64,000 bases of DNA from Bacteroidota bacterium (lineage in GTDB: Bacteria > Bacteroidota > Bacteroidia > UKL13-3). Every line of letters begins with the position of its first letter. The first letter of the stretch is position 1. The stretch is from contig CANGVA010000003.1 of assembly GCA_947457395.1 (NCBI GenBank), forward strand, positions 2,063-66,062, read 5' to 3'. Under the pieces are notes generated by a model. It worked only from the letters and a program-made list of their open reading frames with translations. It did no database searches and had not been told where the DNA came from. This document shows positions 2,522 to 43,395 of the stretch, piece by piece. The translations under genes were made by a program, and so were the position numbers.

Positions 2522-3088
2522 ATGATTATTCAAGTAATTCAGATGATTGTTGAGTTGGCACTCACCATTTTATTTGCCGATTTTATTTCAGGATTTGTGC
2601 ATTGGTTTGAAGACACTTATGGTACGGAGAAAACCCCTATTTGGGGTAAATGGGTTGTTAAACCCAATCTGGAGCACCATGTGCATCCGGCAGCATTTAC
2701 CAAAAAAACATGGCTGCAAAGTTCTTGGGATCTTACCTTAATTTCAGGATTAATTGTACTCATTGCTTATTGGAACAATGCACTTACATGGCATGTTTGG
2801 GTTTTTGCCGTGCTTTCAGCCAATGCAAATCAGGTGCACAAATATGTTCATATGCCTGCACGGAAGGTTCCTTTTATTGTTAGATTTCTACAGCAAGTAG
2901 GGTTGTTCCAAAAGCCAAAGCATCATGCTGTGCATCACTCCGGAGAAAAAAATAAATCATACTGCGTGCTTACCCCTTATGCAAATTATATCCTAGATGC
3001 AGTTTATTTTTGGCGTGCTCTTGAGTTTATGTTAAAGCCAATTTTAGGAGAGCCAAGGCTGGCTGAAAAAGAAATGCAGCAACATTAA
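2522..3088 (+). CDS. Membrane lipid desaturase of the FAD4/CarF/TMEM189 family (Lipid_desat domain)
   Basis: Histidine clusters typical of this family: FVHWFEDTYG, LEHHVHP, NQVHKYVH, KHHAVHHSG, within a polytopic membrane protein. The start was moved to the ATG at 2522 (MIIQVIQ...) because the upstream extension has no family-like sequence. Confidence 0.7.
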   Translation: MIIQVIQMIVELALTILFADFISGFVHWFEDTYGTEKTPIWGKWVVKPNLEHHVHPAAFTKKTWLQSSWDLTLISGLIVLIAYWNNALTWHVWVFAVLSANANQVHKYVHMPARKVPFIVRFLQQVGLFQKPKHHAVHHSGEKNKSYCVLTPYANYILDAVYFWRALEFMLKPILGEPRLAEKEMQQH

Positions 3089-3116
3089 CAGCAGGATTTA
3101 TATCTTTATAAATATT

Positions 3117-3677
3117 ATGAGCCTCATTAATCATATTAGTAAATTAACACCCATCAGCGAGTATGCACTAGCTTGGCTAAAACAACATACAGAGGAGTTT
3201 ATATTTAAGAAAAATGAGATTATACTGAATGAAGGTAAAGTATGCAACCATCTGTATTATGTTGTAAATGGATTGGTGGGTAGTTACTATATAATCGATG
3301 ATCAGGAAGTATGTAACTGGATTGCGATGGAAGAAGATATGGCTACTTGTTATTACAGCTTTATCTCCCGTGAGCCCTCTTATGAAACCATTGTAGCATT
3401 TGAGAATTGTACGGTTCAGTCCATAAGCTATCATCATGTTCAGGAGTTATATAAAAAGTTTCCTGAGACAGAAAAAGCCGGACGATTAATTCTGGAAAAT
3501 TATTATTCCAGACTTGAAGAACGTTTAATCTCCATTCAATTTAAAACAGCTAAGGAGCGATACGATATGCTATTTAATAAGCGACCTGAAATATTTAACC
3601 GTGCGCCTTTGGGTAAGGTGGCAACCTATTTGGGAATGAAGCAGGAAACCTTAAGCAGGTTAAGGTCGGGAAAATAA
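3117..3677 (+). CDS. Crp/Fnr-family transcriptional regulator (cNMP-binding domain plus C-terminal HTH)
   Basis: Size and layout fit the family. Beta-roll region FKKNEIILNEGKVCNHLYYVVNGLV. C-terminal HTH KVATYLGMKQETLSRLR. Confidence 0.75.
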   Translation: MSLINHISKLTPISEYALAWLKQHTEEFIFKKNEIILNEGKVCNHLYYVVNGLVGSYYIIDDQEVCNWIAMEEDMATCYYSFISREPSYETIVAFENCTVQSISYHHVQELYKKFPETEKAGRLILENYYSRLEERLISIQFKTAKERYDMLFNKRPEIFNRAPLGKVATYLGMKQETLSRLRSGK

Positions 3678-33513: not shown

Positions 33514-33574
33514 ACGGCTGCAAATAAATAAAAAAAGAATGGAGAAGCGAGAGACGAGAAACGAGACAAAAGAA

Positions 33575-33664
33575 GAAAGACCGCTACGCTCAAAGAGGAA
33601 AGACAAAAGACCGCTGTACTCAAAGAGGAAAGACAAAAGACCGCTGTACTCAAAGAGGAAAGAT
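33575..33664 (-). repeat. Three tandem copies of a 30-bp unit (GACCGCTGTACTCAAAGAGGAAAGACAAAA on the + strand)
   Basis: The period is exactly 30 bp (33581, 33611, 33641). One inverted copy is present at 39455-39490. Confidence 0.9.
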
Positions 33665-33679
33665 GCGAGAGATGAAACA

Positions 33680-34016
33680 GAATTTTCTAACCTTCTAATC
33701 ATTAACCCGCAATCACAAACCGCAATCATTAACCCGCCATATCAAATCTTTCAATCTTTTAATTTTTCAATCTTCTAATAACAAACCCGCAATCACAAAC
33801 CCGTAATCATTAACCCGCCATATCAAATTTTTCAATCTTCTAATAACAAACCCGCAATCACAAACCCGTAATCATTAACCCGCCATATCAAATCTTTCAA
33901 TCTTCTAATAATTAACCCGCAATAAATAACACTTAATAACAAACTCGCAATATTTAACCCGTAATAATTAACCCGCAATCTCTAATCCTTCAATCTTCTC
34001 CTAACAAACGTAACCC
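33680..34016 (-). repeat. Tandem array of a 65-bp unit (about four copies, plus degenerate ends), starting directly after the stop codon of the HAD gene
   Basis: Unit CAATCTTCTAATAACAAACCCGCAATCACAAACCCGTAATCATTAACCCGCCATATCAAATTTTT, with copies starting at 33768, 33833 and 33898. The + strand is G-poor. Related modules occur at 39372-39440 (inverted) and 42439-42588. Confidence 0.9.
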
Positions 34017-34640: not shown

Positions 34641-34761
34641 AGTACTACCTAAATTAATGTTTGCAGGATAGTTTATCTGAGAGGTCGTCCGAAGGTGTTT
34701 GCCCCTAAAAAACTTACCTCCGCAATTCGGGATAAACTTCTTCCCCAATAACGGTTTTTTT

Positions 34762-34796
34762 AAATAAAAAAACCGGGTCAGCCTGCGCTGCCCGGT
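34762..34796 (-). terminator. Rho-independent terminator (duplicated copy)
   Basis: On the minus strand: ACCGGGCAGCGCAGGCTGACCCGGT followed by TTTTTTT. Confidence 0.7.
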
Positions 34797-34890
34797 CCCA
34801 CGTTGTGGGCCCACTTGGGATTCCCGAGTGCCTTAGCTGCGCTTACCTCCGCAATTCGGGATAAACTTCTTCCCCAATAACGGTTTTTTT

Positions 34891-34925
34891 AAATAAAAAA
34901 ACCGGGTCAGCCTGCGCTGCCCGGT
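34891..34925 (-). terminator. Rho-independent terminator directly downstream of tRNA-Met
   Basis: The same hairpin, ACCGGGCAGC-GCAG-GCTGACCCGGT, plus a T7 run, 10 nt after the tRNA 3' end. Confidence 0.75.
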
Positions 34926-34934
34926 CCCACGTTG

Positions 34935-35008
34935 TGGGCCCACTTGGGATCGAACCAAGCACCCCCTGATTATGAGTCAGATGCTCTAACCGAATGAGCT
35001 ATGGGCCC
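34935..35008 (-). tRNA. tRNA with anticodon CAT (elongator Met, or Ile2 if lysidine-modified); CCA not encoded
   Basis: Reverse complement: GGGCCCA TA GCTC ATTCGGTTA GAGC A TCTGA CTCATAA TCAGG GGGTG CTTGG TTCGATC CCAAG TGGGCCC A. G1-C72 is paired, so this is not an initiator tRNA. Confidence 0.9.
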
Positions 35009-37206: not shown

Positions 37207-38082
37207 ATGAGCAATATTGAGAAAAAGCCTGTTTATCCGTTTGAAAAAATTGCAGTTGCGGTAGCATTCTCCCCAAATATAGAAGCCATTATAGCTGCCT
37301 CTAAAAGGCTGCAGAATATTTTTAACGTATCTATACTTTTTATACATGTAGGCAATCACGATGCAGCGCAGGAAACCTATCTGAAAGAATTGATTACGCG
37401 TTTTGCGTTTGAGCAGAATAACCATGAAATAATTTGGGAAACAGGCGATACCGTAGATAAAATTCTGGAAGTTTGTAAAGCACGGCAGGTTGATTTGCTG
37501 GTTGCAGGTGCACTGGAGAAAGAGAGCCTACTCAAGTATTTCCTGGGCTCTGTAGCACGCAAACTATGTCGCAGAGCCAAATGCAGCATATTGATGCTGA
37601 GGGATCCGGATTTGCTTAACAAACCTGTTCAACGCATTGTGGTAGAAGGAAGCGATCATCCCAAAACGGTTGCTACCATTGAGGCAGCCATTTATGTGGC
37701 AAAGGCTACACATGCCCTTGCGGTTGATGTAATTCAGGAAGAAGATCCGGGCAGACTTGCCCTTATCCGTTCTGATGCATTTACAGATAATGAAGCGGAT
37801 AATAACCGAGAAAAAATGCTGAAACATGAAAATGAAAAACTGGAAGAAATTCTTAGTTGCACCGATTGTGGCAACCTGAAGGTGAATGTAGAAAGACTGG
37901 AAGGTAAACCGGGTTTTATGATTACCAAATATGCACGCGAGCATGAGGCCGACTTGCTGGTGCTCAATTCTCCTGATACCAAGCTGAATGTAATTGACCG
38001 GGTTTTCCCGCATGATATTGAATTTGCTTTGGCCGATTTGCCTTGTGATTTGCTTATTGTGCACTCCAGAACTGATGATTAA
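37207..38082 (+). CDS. Universal stress protein (tandem UspA domains)
   Basis: Two Usp-like halves: KIAVAVAFSP...LLVAGALEKE and RIVVEGSDHP...LLVLNSP. Confidence 0.75.
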   Translation: MSNIEKKPVYPFEKIAVAVAFSPNIEAIIAASKRLQNIFNVSILFIHVGNHDAAQETYLKELITRFAFEQNNHEIIWETGDTVDKILEVCKARQVDLLVAGALEKESLLKYFLGSVARKLCRRAKCSILMLRDPDLLNKPVQRIVVEGSDHPKTVATIEAAIYVAKATHALAVDVIQEEDPGRLALIRSDAFTDNEADNNREKMLKHENEKLEEILSCTDCGNLKVNVERLEGKPGFMITKYAREHEADLLVLNSPDTKLNVIDRVFPHDIEFALADLPCDLLIVHSRTDD

Positions 38083-38093
38083 ATAGACAATAA

Positions 38094-39371
38094 ATGAACC
38101 ATGCCGAACTGATAAATTTGTTGTTTTGCTTAGGCATCATGCTGCTGCTCGGCCGTGTTCTGGGTGAGTTTTTTAGAAAACTTAAAATGCCGCTGGTTGT
38201 GGGTGAGCTACTGGCAGGCCTTATTCTGGGACCAAGCCTGTTGGGTAAATTTTACCCGGAACTAAATCAGCTTATTTTTACAACAAAAGGAAATGTGGGC
38301 ATGGCACTAAACGGTATCACCACCATTTCCGTTGTGATGTTACTTTTTGTTGCCGGCATGGAGGTAGAACTTTCTATAATAAGACAGCAAGGCACTACTG
38401 CATTTAAATCCAGTCTGGTTGGATTGCTGATTCCACTTGGCTTAGGCTTTGCAGCAGGATACTATTTTGCAGACTGGCTTGGCGGCAAAGGGCAACATGA
38501 TGGAAAGGTATTTGCATTGTTTATGGGTACAGCCATGGCCATATCGGCCTTACCTGTTATTGCCCGCACCCTCATGGATCTTGATTTGTTTAAAACCAAA
38601 ATAGGCATGATCATTATTGCGGCAGCCATGTTTGATGATTTAATAGGCTGGATTTTATTTAGCGTGGTGTTGGGCATGATACATACCGGAAGTGATCAGT
38701 TTGAATTTTTATACATTCTGGGTTATACCTTTTTGTATGCCATACTTATGCTAACCGCAGGCCGCATTATAATTAACCGCGCGCTGCCCTGGGCACAACG
38801 TAATTTAAGCTGGCCCGGTGGAGTGCTTGCATTCTCCTTTGGACTTGCCTTTTTGGGTGCTGCACTTACCGAAAAAATTGGTATACATGCCATATTTGGT
38901 GCATTTATAGCCGGTGTAGCCATTGGTGATTCTGTTCATCTAAATGAAAAAACACGTGACATTATTCATCAGTTTGTAACCAATATTTTTGCTCCACTGT
39001 TTTTTGTTTCGGTAGGTTTTAAAGTTGATTTTATAAAAAACTTTGACCTGAGTATTGTTACCGTGGTGCTGGTGTTGGCCATTGCTTGCAAATTGCTGGG
39101 AGCAGGATTGGGCGCACTTTGGGGAGGGTTAAGTTTTAGGGAAGCATCGGCAGTAGGATTTGGTATGAATGCACGCGGTGCTATGGAAATTGTGTTGGGT
39201 TTACTTGCCTTACAGGCGGGGGTTATTTCTGAACCACTGTTTGTGGCGTTGGTTGTAATGGCAGTAATTACATCGGTTATGGCAGGTCCCATGCTACAAT
39301 ATTTACTTACCGGTGAAATGAAAGTGAATGTTAAACTAAGAGATATTCTTCCGGTTAAAGAGGGAGAGTGA
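38094..39371 (+). CDS. Cation:proton antiporter (CPA2, Kef/NapA-like)
   Basis: About 12 transmembrane helices. N-terminus LLLGRVLGEFFRKLKMPLVVGELLAGLILGPSLLG is typical of Na+/H+ exchanger family proteins. Lies 11 nt after the Usp gene. Confidence 0.8.
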   Translation: MNHAELINLLFCLGIMLLLGRVLGEFFRKLKMPLVVGELLAGLILGPSLLGKFYPELNQLIFTTKGNVGMALNGITTISVVMLLFVAGMEVELSIIRQQGTTAFKSSLVGLLIPLGLGFAAGYYFADWLGGKGQHDGKVFALFMGTAMAISALPVIARTLMDLDLFKTKIGMIIIAAAMFDDLIGWILFSVVLGMIHTGSDQFEFLYILGYTFLYAILMLTAGRIIINRALPWAQRNLSWPGGVLAFSFGLAFLGAALTEKIGIHAIFGAFIAGVAIGDSVHLNEKTRDIIHQFVTNIFAPLFFVSVGFKVDFIKNFDLSIVTVVLVLAIACKLLGAGLGALWGGLSFREASAVGFGMNARGAMEIVLGLLALQAGVISEPLFVALVVMAVITSVMAGPMLQYLLTGEMKVNVKLRDILPVKEGE

Positions 39372-39500
39372 TTGCAGGGTTGGTTTATTACGCGTTTTGT
39401 TATTGCGGGGTAATTATTAGAAGATTAGAAAATTCTGTTTCATCTCTCGCATCTTTCCTATTTGAGTGTAGCGGTCTTTTGTCTTTCGTCTTCAGCGCAG
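39372..39500 (+). repeat. Single-copy version of the 33.5-34.0 kb repeat family, beginning immediately after the antiporter stop codon
   Basis: 39416-39490 (ATTAGAAGATTAGAAAATTCTGTTTCATCTCTCGCATCTTTCCTATTTGAGTGTAGCGGTCTTTTGTCTTTC) is the near-exact reverse complement of 33611-33700. 39372-39415 resembles the reverse complement of the CCCGCAAT/TTCTAAT modules. Confidence 0.85.
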
Positions 39501-39601
39501 CAATCTTTCCTCTCATTCATATCATTCAAACCTCGAAATTTCCTGTGTGTTACATCTATTAGTAAAAATTTTGTTCTTTTCCCAACTAAAAAATCATTCT
39601 C

Positions 39602-39619
39602 TTTTCAATTAATTGAAAA
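39602..39619. promoter_or_regulatory. Perfect 18-bp palindrome, candidate operator upstream of the DnaB-like gene
   Basis: TTTTCAATTAATTGAAAA is its own reverse complement. It lies about 143 nt upstream of the ATG at 39762. Confidence 0.3.
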
Positions 39620-39749
39620 CCATCTTCATTAATAATTCTCCACAAGTAGTTCTTCAGTAAATATAAGGTGTGTATAACGCAATGGCAATCCCTTTGCGGC
39701 TTTCAGCCATTGTGCATGAATAAGTTGGATTTGGACACCCTACGCATTT

Positions 39750-39757
39750 TAATTTTG
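39750..39757 (+). promoter_or_regulatory. Bacteroidota -7 box-like motif (TAnnTTTG) just upstream of the DnaB-like ATG
   Basis: TAATTTTG fits the TAnnTTTG consensus. At only 5 nt from the ATG it would imply a leaderless or near-leaderless transcript. Confidence 0.25.
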
Positions 39758-39761
39758 TTTC

Positions 39762-41093
39762 ATGGATTTTTCATCAACAGGTCCGGATAGTAAATGGATA
39801 GCTGCTCAGCAAAGGGTGGTGAAGGTACTCTTGCAGCAACCAAGATTATTTTTGCGTTATGCCGAACAATTGCGTGAAGATTATTTTACCGAACCCAATC
39901 TTAAATTATTAATCCGTACTATGCACACGCTGCATGGCACCTTTGGCATATTTGATTTGTATCTGCTTAGAAACAGTTTGCATTATGAACTTGATGAAAC
40001 CACGCTTGCAACACTTCATCAGTGGTCAGCAGCAGTAGTTGAATCCGATGATATAACGTATGATATTTCTTTACTAAAGGATTATGCGGCACGCAGATTG
40101 GTTCATGATTTAGGTAAATTGCTGCAGCAAAAGAGTTTCAATGATGAAATAGAGGTTTCAGAACTCAAAGATTATATACATACATATACCCGTATGCTGG
40201 ATGAGATGCAACCTGCTAGCCAAACGGAAAGTTTAAAACAAATACTGGATCGCATACAAATAGAAAATTCTGTTGCAAACAACTGCACATGGTTTGATAC
40301 GCAGCTGCAGGATTATTTAGGAAACCTTGATCCGGGAGAGCTGGTAGTGATAGGTTCCCGACCCGGTGTGGGCAAAACAGCTTTTATCCATACACAGCTG
40401 GTTCATCTGGCATGTGCCTGTAAGATACCGGTTGGCTATATTAACCTGGTAGAAAATGATCACAATCTGGTGCTAAAATTACTTAAGGTTTCTGAAGGCT
40501 GCAGAGATGAGTTAAAGCATGATACATTGCCTGATCATGAACAGCCATGGCCAATATATATCAGCAATAATTTAGCAGGTAGTCGTTTTAGGGATATTAA
40601 GGCGGCAGCCAATTACCTCAAATATAAATATGATATCCAGGTGCTGGCTATCGACTGCTTTCAGCAAATTACCTATCAGCCTAAAATGAATTACCGTGAT
40701 TATGAACTTGGACAGGTGTTGAAGGAAATAAAACGCATGGCTAAAGAAATGAATATGGCGGTTATACTTACTTCTCAACTGAGCAGAATGACAGAAAAGC
40801 GCGGCTATTTGGGAATGCCCGTATTGAGCGACCTTAAAGAAACCAGCTATCTGGAAGAAGTGGCCGATAAGGTTTTGCTGCTGCACAGATATGACTATTA
40901 TGGTATTACAGTGTATGAGGATGGCACACCAACCGGTAATGACAGCAATGTTTTGATAGCTAAAAATAAGTATGGAAAATCGGGTAAGGTGTTATTATCA
41001 TTTGATAGTAAGTTGGGGAAGTTTTTGCCTAAAGCACAACCACTGCCTATGGTGTTTGAGTTTCCGGCAAACAGGCTAACCGATTTGGAATAA
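39762..41093 (+). CDS. Divergent DnaB-family hexameric helicase-like ATPase (443 aa), candidate retron-associated effector
   Basis: Walker A GSRPGVGKTAF. Possible catalytic-Glu motif INLVEN (compare FSLEMS). Walker B VLAIDCFQQI. SQLSRMTEKRG and LSDLKETSYLEEVADKVLLLHRYDYYG (compare DnaB LSQLSR and LSDLRESG.IEQDAD.V.FL.R). The N-terminal QQRVVKVLLQQPRLF...FTEPNLKLLIRTM is DnaB-N-like. It is shorter and more degenerate than typical Bacteroidota DnaB. Confidence 0.75.
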   Translation: MDFSSTGPDSKWIAAQQRVVKVLLQQPRLFLRYAEQLREDYFTEPNLKLLIRTMHTLHGTFGIFDLYLLRNSLHYELDETTLATLHQWSAAVVESDDITYDISLLKDYAARRLVHDLGKLLQQKSFNDEIEVSELKDYIHTYTRMLDEMQPASQTESLKQILDRIQIENSVANNCTWFDTQLQDYLGNLDPGELVVIGSRPGVGKTAFIHTQLVHLACACKIPVGYINLVENDHNLVLKLLKVSEGCRDELKHDTLPDHEQPWPIYISNNLAGSRFRDIKAAANYLKYKYDIQVLAIDCFQQITYQPKMNYRDYELGQVLKEIKRMAKEMNMAVILTSQLSRMTEKRGYLGMPVLSDLKETSYLEEVADKVLLLHRYDYYGITVYEDGTPTGNDSNVLIAKNKYGKSGKVLLSFDSKLGKFLPKAQPLPMVFEFPANRLTDLE

Positions 41094-41110
41094 ACATATT
41101 CGGTGCACCA

Positions 41111-41259
41111 TTACACAAATACAATGAAGACATGCTAAAGTCTTGTAACTGTTGTTTCTGCAGTTGATTTAAAAATAGCCGGTGGCAGCCAACGAACAAG
41201 TTTCACTTCGTTCACTTGTTCGTTGCTTCAGGGGGTTAAATAGATTGTATTTGTTGTAA
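41111..41259 (+). ncRNA. Retron msr/msd-like non-coding RNA (predicted)
   Basis: a1 TTACACAAATACAAT (41111-41125) pairs with a2 ATTGTATTTGTTGTAA (41244-41259) with one bulge. G41126 directly follows a1 (branching-G position). Short hairpins AAGAC/GTCTT (41127-41144) and AACTG/CAGTT (41147-41165). A perfect 12-bp stem CAACGAACAAGT/ACTTGTTCGTTG (41190-41201 and 41214-41225) has a 12-nt loop. The region ends 34 nt before the RT start. Confidence 0.6.
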
Positions 41260-41293
41260 TGTGTGCCCGATTTTTAACGATGAATTTTTGGTG

Positions 41294-42295
41294 ATGAGAT
41301 CACTTGAAGAACTTTTAAAAATATTAGCAATTTCTTCGGAGCTTTTGCAACAATTACTTGCAGCACCGGAGTATACGATATACCATATTTCCAAAAAAAG
41401 CGGAGGCACACGCACCATTCAGGCGCCTCAGGGATTGTTGCGTCAAACACAGGTTCTGCTGGCAAAGTACCTTCAGACAGTTTATTCCCGCCATCACTTG
41501 CCATGCATACATGGATTTGTTCCATCAGCCGGTTTGCTAAAATATGGAGTTCTGTCAAATGCAGTACCTCATTTAAATAAGCCCTTTGTATTAAATATGG
41601 ATATTAAAAACTTTTTTGAAAGTATAACGGCAAAAAAAGTGAAGAAAAGCTTGTGTGAATTTCCATATTATTTTAATGAAGAAGTGGCAACAGCTATTGC
41701 ATTGTTGTGCACGTATCAAAAACAATTGCCTACAGGCGCTCCTACTTCTCCCGTATTATCAAACATGGTATTTTATATTCCGGATGTGGCTTTGTTGCAA
41801 TGGATAACAGATGTGAACGAGACAAAGCAAATTGATGAAACAGGCATTAGTTATACCAGATATGCAGATGATTTAACTTTTTCAGGATCGGCAAATCTGG
41901 TGCTTTCACTGCAGGCTCGCATCATATCATTTTTTGCTACTGAGGGATTTGAAATCAATGCAAAAAAAACAAGGGCACAAACACCTCATGGACCTCAATG
42001 GGTGACGGGAATAAAGGTGAATGAAAGATTAAACATTAGCAGGTATTATATCAGAAACCTGAGAGCTGTCATACATCAGATGCGGGTTCATGCTGCAGAA
42101 GCTGTTGTGTGCAGGTATTTAAAATTACCGGCTACAACGCAAATAAATACTGCGCATGTAAAAAAGATGTTGAGCAGTGTACAATCAAAAATAGCATGGG
42201 TAGGAATGGTAAGAGGCAAAGCAGACCCGATATATCTGCGTTTACAAACTCAATTTAATGTAGCAAGGGAGGTGATGCTGGTAAAAGAATCTTGA
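41294..42295 (+). CDS. Retron-type reverse transcriptase
   Basis: YHISKKSGGTRTIQAP (RT1/2). SNAVPH (retron NAxxH). VLNMDIKNFFESI (RT3). LPTGAPTSPVLSNM (RT4). YTRYADDLTFSG (RT5, YADD). FEINAKKT (RT6/7). WVTGIKVN (retron VTG). Collinear with Ec86 RT as I remember it. Start moved to the ATG at 41294, because the ATG at 41261 would overlap a2. Confidence 0.9.
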   Translation: MRSLEELLKILAISSELLQQLLAAPEYTIYHISKKSGGTRTIQAPQGLLRQTQVLLAKYLQTVYSRHHLPCIHGFVPSAGLLKYGVLSNAVPHLNKPFVLNMDIKNFFESITAKKVKKSLCEFPYYFNEEVATAIALLCTYQKQLPTGAPTSPVLSNMVFYIPDVALLQWITDVNETKQIDETGISYTRYADDLTFSGSANLVLSLQARIISFFATEGFEINAKKTRAQTPHGPQWVTGIKVNERLNISRYYIRNLRAVIHQMRVHAAEAVVCRYLKLPATTQINTAHVKKMLSSVQSKIAWVGMVRGKADPIYLRLQTQFNVAREVMLVKES

Positions 42296-42438
42296 AGGGG
42301 AATGCGGGAATTAGGTGTTAGGTCTATGCAACTTAATATTCAACAATGAGTATACAGCTGTTGGCCTTTGGCTGTTTGAAGTTTTTTAACGTAGTGTCTA
42401 ATGCTTGGGATTTGGGTATTAGGTGTTGATGATTTGCG

Positions 42439-42588
42439 ATTAAATATAAATATCTAAATTACTCAATCTCCTAATTTTCTAATCTTTTAATCTTCTAATA
42501 ACAAACCTTCTAACCTTCTAATCTTTCAATCTTCTAATAACAAACCTTCTAACCTTCTAAACTTTCAATCTTTTAATCTTCCAATCTT
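42439..42588 (-). repeat. Repeat-family locus 3, abutting the pyrF stop codon; two 39-bp tandem units plus degenerate copies
   Basis: AATCTTCTAATAACAAACCTTCTAACCTTCTAATCTTTC at 42489 and 42528. It shares TTCTAATCTTCTAATAACAAAC modules with 33.7-34.0 kb. The + strand has no G from 42439 to 42605. Confidence 0.85.
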
Positions 42589-43395
42589 CTAATCTCCTAC
42601 ATACTGCGCCATTTCATCTGCCATTTTTTTAGCTTCGGCTGCAGCAGCTTCGGCAAAATCTTTACCTGATGAGGCATAGATGATGCTGCGTGAGGCATTG
42701 ATAAGCAATCCGCAATCCTGATTCATGCCATATTTTACCACATCGGCCAGACTGCCTCCTTGCGCACCCACACCGGGTACCAATAGAAAATGATCGGGGA
42801 TGAGTTTACGAATATGAGCCAATTCCTCTGCTTTGGTTGCACCAACCACAAACATCAGGTTGCCTGTATTACCAATTTGTGTGGTAGTTGTAATCACATG
42901 CTCATATAACTTTCGGTTACCAATAAGTTGTTGTTCATAGTCGGCACTGCCCGGATTGGATGTAAGCGCAAGTACAATGCCCCATCTGTTGTCGTAGGCA
43001 AAGAATGGTGCTATGGAATCTTTACCCATGTATGGTGCCAGTGTTACGGAATGAAATGGCAATGTTTCAAAGAATGCGCGTGCATACATATTGCTGGTAT
43101 TGCCAATATCTCCTCTTTTGGCATCTGCTATGGTAAAGATATTTTCAGGTATGTGAAACAGGGTGCGCTCCATGCTTTCCCAACCCTTAACGCCATTGGC
43201 CTCATAAAATGCAGTGTTGATTTTATAACTAACACAGTAATCTTTGGTGGCATCAATAATGGCCTTATTAAATTCAAATACAGGATCATCCAGGTGTAAT
43301 AAGTGTGACGGTATTTTTTTAATATCGGTATCTAGGCCTACACATAAAAAACTTTTTTTTAGTTTAATCTGCTTTATGAGTTCTGTTCTGTTCAT
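42589..43395 (-). CDS. pyrF: orotidine 5'-phosphate decarboxylase (long, type 2-like form)
   Basis: FLCVGLDTD, DAKRGDIGNT, VPGVGAQGG. Start at the ATG at 43395 (MNRTELI). Confidence 0.9.
   Translation of the reverse strand: MNRTELIKQIKLKKSFLCVGLDTDIKKIPSHLLHLDDPVFEFNKAIIDATKDYCVSYKINTAFYEANGVKGWESMERTLFHIPENIFTIADAKRGDIGNTSNMYARAFFETLPFHSVTLAPYMGKDSIAPFFAYDNRWGIVLALTSNPGSADYEQQLIGNRKLYEHVITTTTQIGNTGNLMFVVGATKAEELAHIRKLIPDHFLLVPGVGAQGGSLADVVKYGMNQDCGLLINASRSIIYASSGKDFAEAAAAEAKKMADEMAQYVGD

Follow-up and report, generated by a model that had tools for sequence, protein, structure and literature searches.

A stretch of 64,000 nucleotides from a Bacteroidota bacterium (assembly GCA_947457395.1, contig CANGVA010000003.1, positions 2,063 to 66,062) was analysed; the whole stretch is called the window here, and positions are counted from its first nucleotide. 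The window carries a compact retron operon of ~2.6 kb, in which a gene for a DnaB-like ATPase (39762-41093), an msr-msd non-coding RNA (ncRNA, 41098-41274) and a gene for a retron-type reverse transcriptase (RT, 41294-42295) follow one another on the forward strand. The islet is flanked by convergent core genes, a Na+/H+ exchanger gene on the left (38094-39371, forward strand) and pyrF on the right (42589-43395, reverse strand). An initial annotation, made from the sequence without database searches, had described an islet between convergent core genes in which a retron RT and its ncRNA lie on the same strand as a helicase-like gene. This layout was confirmed; the retron components are supported by PADLOC and RVT_1 matches, by the NAVPH, YADD and VTG motifs of the RT and by the folded ncRNA.

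The open reading frame (ORF) at 39762-41093 encodes a DnaB-family ring ATPase of 443 residues, as identified by Pfam, profile and AlphaFold2 (AF2) structure matches. Pfam detected DnaB_C over residues 181-421 (1.1e-37) and the DnaB N-terminal domain over residues 13-106 (1.1e-5). A profile of the helicase family matched the solved DnaB structures 2vye, 2r6a and 4nmn (Geobacillus, Aquifex) at ~1e-60 over residues 8-422. The AF2 model (predicted local distance difference test score 88.6, predicted template modelling score 0.72) shows all the elements of a full-length DnaB fold: a DnaB-N-like domain (residues 1-110), a helical hairpin and linker helix (~111-175) and a RecA-like DnaB_C domain (176-421), to which a family-specific tail is added (422-443). 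When the model was searched with Foldseek, DnaB chains 4esv, 7t22 and 9dls were matched at full length (E ~1e-26, ~430 columns), and solved structures of DnaB bound to lambda P or to DnaG were also among the matches. The complete DnaB layout that had been read from the sequence is therefore correct, and every motif quoted at that time was found in place: GSRPGVGKT (40353-40379), INLVEN (40440-40457), AIDCFQQ (40647-40667) and SQLSR (40773-40787). The SDLKET motif lies at 40827-40844. None of the PADLOC models corresponds to the helicase.

The catalytic residues of the protein were compared with those of canonical DnaB. Walker A K205 and T206, Walker B D298, Q301 and the SQLSR motif, a loop motif that binds single-stranded DNA, are invariant or nearly so across the helicase family. 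The nucleotide-binding site is intact. The position of the arginine finger in SDLRESG is taken by Lys359 (SDLK), and a lysine is present in 12 of 12 close-family members. The position of the catalytic glutamate of SLEM is occupied by Val230, with a glutamate one residue on (Glu231), and 12 close relatives have valine or isoleucine there. Of the canonical set formed by the Walker A lysine, the SLEM glutamate, the Walker B aspartate and the SDLRESG arginine finger, only the Walker A and Walker B residues are present. The canonical catalytic residues are mostly retained in two related clades described below, one of proteins of ~350 residues and one of intermediate forms. A member of the intermediate family, P0095, has GMGTQA for the Walker A GxGKT and SLKTP for SLEMS, and the tail is still present; these substitutions suggest a ring that is probably without catalytic activity.

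The RT frame is open from a GTG at 41261, which would give 344 residues, and from an ATG at 41294, which gives 333. The ATG is most likely the start, because the a2 arm of the ncRNA (41256-41269) overlaps the GTG; a 333-residue RT product is also called by NCBI in a sister genome. The domain content of the protein is RVT_1 alone (5e-16), with no fused effector domain. Sixty-four PADLOC retron RT models matched. The best were RT-Protease_XI (1.2e-82; positions 5-321 of the 510-position model), RT-TIR_XII and RT-Toprim_I-C, each aligned in its RT part only. The catalytic box YADD and two regions specific to retron RTs, NAxxH and VTG, are all present, as NAVPH at 41558, YADD at 41861 and VTG at 42002 (residues 100, 201 and 248 of the ORF from 41261).

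The ncRNA of 177 nucleotides (41098-41274, forward strand) was defined by its minimum free energy fold (-63 kcal/mol, z = -6.25), a consensus structure of 37 pairs and a covariance model. The a1 arm (41101-41114) pairs with a2 (41256-41269) in a closing stem that is conserved in the family and that extends in the window to ~41125/41244. Two msr hairpins (41127-41144 and 41146-41166) and an msd hairpin (41191-41224) lie within the stem, and a U-run (41271-41275) follows it. The initial annotation had placed the a1 repeat of a retron-like ncRNA 17 nucleotides past the helicase stop codon. The a1 arm of such an RNA is indeed located there; the distance had to be revised, since the conserved a1 begins at 41101, 7 nucleotides past the stop, and the 17 nucleotides refer to an inner extension of the a1/a2 stem that is specific to the window (~41111-41125 with 41244-41256). 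A possible priming guanosine for the 2'-5' branch, the G in TGAAG just past a1, is not invariant and is an A in one relative (L014), so that its assignment is tentative.

A covariance model, R1, built from six close relatives also detected the ncRNA in more distant loci, three sub-clades in total. Wherever it was found, the ncRNA came after the stop codon of the helicase and ahead of the RT. In the alignment 95% of the cells were paired and compensatory changes were seen in 32 of the 37 pairs, compared with 7-13 in slid controls, figures that lean toward structure because the alignment was fitted to the covariance model. A Rfam scan of 39300-42700 returned two noise matches only, and the ncRNA is therefore not a curated family. 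The U-run after a2 recurs in nearly every family member that could be read that far. The a1/a2 stem and the U-tract together resemble an intrinsic terminator between ncRNA and RT and could set the ratio of the two; the terminator scan made no call on this element.

The association of helicase and RT was followed across relatives. A protein search recovered a tight helicase family of ~13 clusters (46-58% identity, 432-443 residues), after which identity drops to 30% or less. An RVT_1 gene follows the helicase in 7 of 7 family members looked up, wherever the contig reaches far enough; the contigs of two intermediate relatives, P0014 and P0091, stop at the helicase gene and are not informative on RT linkage. 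The same order of helicase, ncRNA and RT on one strand was found beside pyrF, beside hutU, beside a type I restriction-modification locus and in an island with HigB, GIY-YIG and SLFN-like helicase genes. Among 185,579 species genomes, members of the close family were present in 4, all of them Bacteroidota metagenome-assembled genomes (MAGs), and only ~9 representative clusters stood above the ordinary-DnaB plateau in an exhaustive profile search.

The arrangement extends beyond the close family. The ~350-residue proteins form a clade in which the N-terminal domain is missing and helicase, ncRNA and RT again follow in this order, the helicases being 29-34% identical and the RTs 32-38% identical to those of the window; its hosts are Crocinitomicaceae, Flavobacteriales, Bacteroidales and one Verrucomicrobia MAG. 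One of the intermediate forms of 444-464 residues, P0093, is encoded on a circular contig of 3.28 Mb, where ncRNA and RT come after the helicase gene and HigB, GIY-YIG and SLFN-like helicase genes adjoin. Full-length forms span 432-464 residues overall, and the three parts of the operon are co-inherited in at least three sub-clades. Moreover, the pairwise identities of helicases and RTs are strongly correlated (r = 0.90 over 190 pairs). A metagenome scan added at least a few RT-linked loci, the matches listed being mostly ordinary DnaB. The matches listed from a scan of IMG/VR viral contigs were also mostly ordinary DnaB, with no RT-linked member among them.

The RT-linked helicases share a C-terminal tail, which in the window lies at 41025-41090 (forward strand) and ends in ...PMVFEFPANRLTDLE. 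The tail follows roughly the motif [FY]-x-[FVI]-x(2-4)-R-x-x-[DE]-[LIF] and is absent from ordinary DnaB. When 121 clusters of DnaB-like loci (after collapse at 90% identity) were scored, an RT was directly downstream in 20 of the 20 tail-bearing clusters and in 1 of the 101 tail-less ones (Fisher test, 6e-22), with the qualification that the motif was defined post hoc and that the clusters are phylogenetically related. In the window clade the tail stops at ...NRLxDLE, without an acidic Pro-Phe tip. The C-termini of L015-L034, L085, P0089, P0092 and P0093 run on from the tail into a series of acidic residues closed by Pro-Phe (...EDEDPPF, ...EDVPF). The co-occurrence of homologues with retron RTs, which the initial annotation had named as a check, is thus observed, and the helicase gene has both the specific association and the co-evolution with the RT that mark a retron accessory gene. 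These comparisons support the view that the helicase is the dedicated partner of the retron.

Additional evidence came from syntenic loci. The window and locus L003 are ~100% identical from 40931, the site of the last mismatch, to ~42300, an interval that takes in the final 50 or so codons of the helicase as well as the ncRNA and the RT. To the left of this point the rest of the helicase gene is 45-80% identical in nucleotide comparison, and the proteins, although they accompany an identical RT, have only 37% identity in the N-terminal domain and 68% in the ATPase domain. A recombination junction zone was therefore placed at 40931-40950 (forward strand), at helicase codons ~385-396. A third syntenic locus, L091, shows the reverse pattern with L003: the helicase bodies are 83-95% identical, and the tail and RT differ. 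The junction between L003 and L091 is independent and falls at the same codons, ~385-396. The helicase body is under purifying selection between these two loci (ratio of nonsynonymous to synonymous substitution rates, dN/dS, 0.10-0.23). The pattern is suggestive of a functional tie between the C-terminal segment of the helicase and the RT and ncRNA.

The regions around the operon were also examined. A conserved region upstream of the helicase gene (39681-39757, forward strand) is its putative promoter or leader. It contains a hairpin, GCAATGGC...GCCATTGTGC (~39681-39716), whose stem is invariant and whose loop is variable in the window, L003 and L091, and a Bacteroidota-type -7 box, TAATTTTG (39750-39757), which is invariant in the same three loci and has a TANNTTTG match at 39750. 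Scans for sigma-70 promoters and for terminators gave site counts no higher than in shuffled sequence and a scan of the whole window for the -7 motif (TANNTTTG) showed no enrichment, so that the promoter assignments are tentative.

Repeats mark both boundaries of the islet. The left boundary repeat (39392-39492, no strand assigned) is one arm of an inverted repeat of 101 nucleotides whose partner lies at 33623-33723, and the short AATCTTCTAAT-type repeats occur within it in an inverted copy. The right boundary, identified by a repeat search, consists of short AATCTTCTAAT-type repeats arrayed from the RT gene towards pyrF (42459-42609, no strand assigned). The two arms of the inverted repeat are 91% complementary and enclose a block of ~5.7 kb with HAD, E1_dh, Usp and Na+/H+ exchanger genes, which has the opposite orientation to that in the sister genomes L002-L006. 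Arrays of short AATCTTCTAAT / AACCCGCAAT-type repeats occur at 33681-34009, 39396-39434 and 42459-42609, flanking the islet to the left and right and also lying at the distal end of the inverted block; they may be REP/MITE-like (repetitive extragenic palindromes or miniature inverted-repeat transposable elements) or recombination substrates. Contigs L258 and L259, from other samples, stop shortly past pyrF, where the right-hand array would come. Within the same region there is a perfect direct duplication of 109 nucleotides (34713-34821 and 34842-34950, 129 nucleotides start to start) with the palindrome CGGTTTTTTTAAATAAAAAAACCG in each copy, and a 30-nucleotide unit (AGAGGAAAGACAAAAGACCGCT...) is repeated three times in tandem at 33564-33663, with an inverted copy at 39452-39492.

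The neighbourhoods of several relatives contain further genes. In L012, a close-family locus, a gene for a WYL-WCX protein lies just 5' of the helicase gene (2537-3544); WYL proteins are partners of TXI_C2like, another protease-less type XI-like lineage (Toro, bioRxiv 10.64898/2026.05.14.725207). Some other relatives are accompanied by defence-type genes. HigB and helix-turn-helix genes, a GIY-YIG gene, an SLFN-like/UvrD_C helicase gene and a gene for an AAA_11/12 protein of 1901 residues were found near the retron in L261 (1284-17389). Type I restriction-modification genes hsdR and hsdS with DUF4062 lie near the relative in L008 (1-4218), and a Zeta toxin gene near that in L029 (8406-8981).

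The initial annotation had presented a retron with a DnaB-family partner as a pairing that it did not recognise, and had allowed that prior description as a retron type would remove the novelty. The pairing has in fact been reported, in a single-author, purely computational preprint based on SPIRE genomes (Toro, bioRxiv 10.64898/2026.05.14.725207, 14 May 2026), so that the claim of novelty falls on that ground; what is said of the preprint here refers to its sections on this lineage, its DnaB passages and part of one table. The preprint describes TXI_noncan_h, a monophyletic branch of protease-less type XI-like retrons with DnaB_C partners and with a double stem-loop ncRNA that is flanked by a1/a2 and starts the operon's RT region 22-104 bp upstream of the RT, in Bacillota and in Bacteroidota, some of the latter being aquatic. 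The significance of DnaB_C, which is mostly at position +1, downstream of the RT, is said there to remain "unclear". Two loci related to ours are in its table, CAIYNF01 (our L033) as typeXI-low with DnaB_C and CAIKXD01 (our L029) as a low-confidence "type I-C3" with DnaB_C; the close-family genomes JAJTFA01, CAZRVA01, CANHBJ01 and JAGPCI01 are absent from the part of its tables covered here.

The window locus combines a protease-less, stand-alone type XI-like RT containing NAxxH and VTG with a separate, adjacent DnaB_C gene in a Bacteroidota host, which is the combination that distinguishes TXI_noncan_h, and its a2 arm ends 24 nucleotides before the ATG at 41294, within the reported spacing. 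The locus is probably a further member of this recently and computationally described lineage (protease-less, type XI-like, RT clade 8), to which it is linked indirectly through L033. The tail motif, the split into full-length and truncated forms, the catalytic erosion, the uniform gene order and the recombination junctions were not found in the parts of the preprint named above, and a search of other literature found no further paper on a retron-DnaB pairing. What is apparently new here is the tail signature, the full-length clade with eroded catalytic residues and the two junctions near codons 385-396.

The locus was also compared with the established retron types. A helicase does not appear in the 13-type classification of Mestre et al. 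2020 (PMC7736814). Type XI consists there of clade 8 RTs fused to a trypsin-like protease, without recognisable ncRNA; clade 8 also contains Toprim fusions, and in types XI, XII and I-C the fused C-terminal domain is the putative effector (PMC7736814). The window RT, for which RT-Protease_XI is the closest PADLOC model (1e-82, RT part), fits clade 8. However, unlike a canonical type XI RT it has no protease domain (333-344 residues, the ORF ending at 344, with RVT_1 only), and the locus has a clear ncRNA and a separate DnaB-like partner gene. The RT is likewise closely related to those of the Ec67-like type I-C (RT-Toprim) and of type XII (RT-TIR), with PADLOC values of 1e-71 to 1e-76 and with Retron_TIR and Ec67 as the top NCBIfam RT matches. 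The scores are nevertheless below the family cutoffs (219 vs 600; 195 vs 450), no Toprim or TIR domain is fused to the RT, and the partner is a separate gene located 5' of the ncRNA.

These observations are best explained by a compact retron operon of the TXI_noncan_h type with a DnaB-like partner, a ring ATPase that would be held on msDNA (multicopy single-stranded DNA); this explanation is favoured with moderate confidence. The RT would make msDNA from the ncRNA, and the DnaB-like ring could bind the single-stranded arms of the msDNA in its central channel. The C-terminal segment may tether the ring to the RT-msDNA complex and hold it inert. If a phage were to disturb the msDNA or the complex, the freed ring ATPase might engage replication forks or replisome partners and stop replication, leading to abortive infection. 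The lysine finger and the shifted glutamate would suit slow hydrolysis in the manner of a switch better than a processive motor. The N-terminal domain looks like a specificity or regulatory add-on, since it is the fastest-diverging part in the window clade and is dispensable in the 350-residue clade. The characterised retron effectors known to us are nucleases, enzymes that attack NAD or nucleotides, membrane proteins and proteases. For an effector role of the helicase it can be said that the DnaB-like gene is the only other gene of the operon, while the relatives of the RT carry fused putative effectors. Such a role, with a ring that would be held in check by msDNA and then poison forks as the initial annotation proposed, is a plausible hypothesis.

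A number of observations weigh against this explanation or parts of it. It is not obvious what toxic activity a DnaB paralogue would have, and for msDNA production and phage defence in the lineage the one report is computational (bioRxiv 10.64898/2026.05.14.725207). The helicase lies upstream of the RT, with the ncRNA between, in every locus retrieved, whereas in the parts of the preprint cited above it is mostly downstream. The islet in the window is without defence-island context, having core genes on both sides, and no empty site beside pyrF was seen in close relatives; with the 268-residue pyrF product as the query, all places with enough flank held the retron. Given the lysine at the arginine finger and the out-of-register glutamate of the window clade, and a P0095 without the Walker A lysine, motor activity may not be what matters. 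The recombination junctions may simply mark high nucleotide homology, as crossovers naturally fall in conserved sequence. Furthermore, the divergent tract between the window and L003 continues to the left over the Usp and Na+/H+ exchanger genes (37207-39371; 81% and 74% amino acid identity; synonymous divergence, dS, 1.3-1.7). The possibility had been considered that a helicase cassette was swapped against a constant RT; it was dropped because the tract includes these two genes. The tract may represent one larger recombination import, and for this reason only the two independent junctions at codons ~385-396 are claimed. The E1_dh gene beside Usp is 98.7% identical to that of the sister genome (dS 0.17) and the genes to the right of the retron are likewise far less diverged, a contrast which indicates that the chromosome near the islet is strongly mosaic.

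The alternative that fares best, though it is unlikely, is that the ATPase is a helper and not an effector. It would unwind the structured template, strip RNA from the msDNA or aid processivity, as T7 gp4 does for gp5, and the biological output would come from the RT-msDNA itself or else from a host factor encoded elsewhere. The co-divergence of RT and helicase, the C-terminal segment that travels with the RT and the motor motifs, largely conserved in the wider family, are all in keeping with a helper. The C-terminal tails of T7 gp4, which bind the polymerase, and of SSB are acidic partner-binding tails. The operon resembles these systems in that a ring helicase of the DnaB superfamily with a C-terminal tail is encoded beside a polymerase gene, and the acidic Pro-Phe ends of the 350-residue and intermediate clades are reminiscent of the gp4 tail and the SSB tip. 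The window clade, however, is without the acidic Pro-Phe tip, and the likeness of the tails is a resemblance and not homology. To our knowledge, msDNA synthesis in other retrons does not depend on a helicase. The related RTs of types XI, XII and I-C have a fused putative effector, so that the effector slot would be empty here, and the eroded catalysis of the window clade fits a needed motor poorly.

Somewhat less likely still is a decoy or guard of the replisome, in which a mimic of the host DnaB is bound by phage loaders, primases or inhibitors, the variable N-terminal domain senses the event and the RT-msDNA triggers arrest. Consistent with a decoy, divergence between alleles with identical RT is greatest in the N-terminal domain, the full DnaB fold is kept together with the N-terminal domain, helical hairpin and linker that are known as surfaces for DnaB partners (the lambda P and DnaG complexes among the structure matches), and eroded catalysis suits bait. 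However, the 350-residue clade is without the N-terminal domain and retains the operon, so that this domain cannot be the core sensor. Moreover, no separate killing module is evident, and the decoy is argued purely by inference.

Equally unlikely is a reading in which msDNA serves as the docking strand for a DnaB-like ring that mimics the replisome. The variable N-terminal domain and ring surfaces would bait phage loaders, hijackers or inhibitors; their engagement, or loss of the msDNA, would release the ring, which would then block forks or sequester primase or loader. If this were true, the retron would guard the helicase-loading step, with a helicase paralogue as both sensor and effector.

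It is improbable that the operon serves to replicate a small mobile element or satellite, with helicase and RT promoting the propagation of that element and not host defence. The differing chromosomal contexts and the flanking repeats would suit a mobile element, and the replication modules of phages and plasmids commonly include a DnaB-like helicase (PHROG 19). On the other hand, the conserved unit comprises one ncRNA and just two genes, none of them for an integrase, a primase or an origin-binding protein. The RT shows motifs specific to retrons and is accompanied by an a1/a2 ncRNA, the operon is found at one and the same site in the chromosomes of related organisms, and the matches listed from IMG/VR viral contigs include no member.

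Finally, the protein was compared with replicative helicases. It resembles replicative DnaB (Geobacillus 4esv/2r6a, E. coli 7t22, Aquifex 4nmn) in its full-length fold, domain order, Walker A and B motifs, conserved glutamine and SQLSR, and in the helical hairpin and linker helix that are used in hexamer assembly. It differs in its low identity (~22-27%), lysine finger, glutamate displaced by one residue, extra tail, rarity, linkage to an RT and fast divergence. It also fails the replicative-DnaB equivalog TIGR00665 (159.7 bits; cutoff 385.25) and falls short of the phage_DnaB model (117.7 bits; cutoff 498.65). The closest relative is named "DnaB-like helicase C-terminal domain-containing protein" by NCBI. 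Between the window and the Sphingobacteriales MAG JAJTFA01 the RT is identical (dS 0), the PyrF protein is identical (dS 0.03) and E1_dh is 98.7% identical, whereas the helicase is 57.5% identical. The initial claim that this is not the chromosomal replicative helicase thus gained indirect support from the TIGR00665 result, the rarity of the family and the divergence of the helicase beside an identical RT and PyrF, and the protein is very likely not the housekeeping DnaB. That the cell's own replicative DnaB lies by chance next to a retron is accordingly a most improbable alternative: the complete DnaB architecture, the name "replicative DNA helicase" given to relatives by JGI pipelines and the lack of a second DnaB homologue in the 64-kb window, which says little on the whole genome, would agree with it, but the low equivalog score, the altered finger and glutamate, the few genomes and clusters of the family, its divergence between otherwise matching genomes and its constant linkage to an RT do not.

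The locus places a paralogue of the replicative helicase in the putative effector slot of a retron, a pairing whose one report, a computational preprint, leaves the role of the helicase open in the parts cited. It also supplies natural variants, namely two helicase alleles, 58% identical, beside identical ncRNA and RT, and a third locus with the reverse combination of a similar helicase body and a different tail and RT. The short conserved tail of the RT-linked helicases is a candidate docking element. The locus is a compact test case in three parts, and across the family the N-terminal domain may be present or missing and the catalytic residues intact or eroded. If the helicase is the effector or the sensor, retron immunity would be linked directly to the replication machinery.

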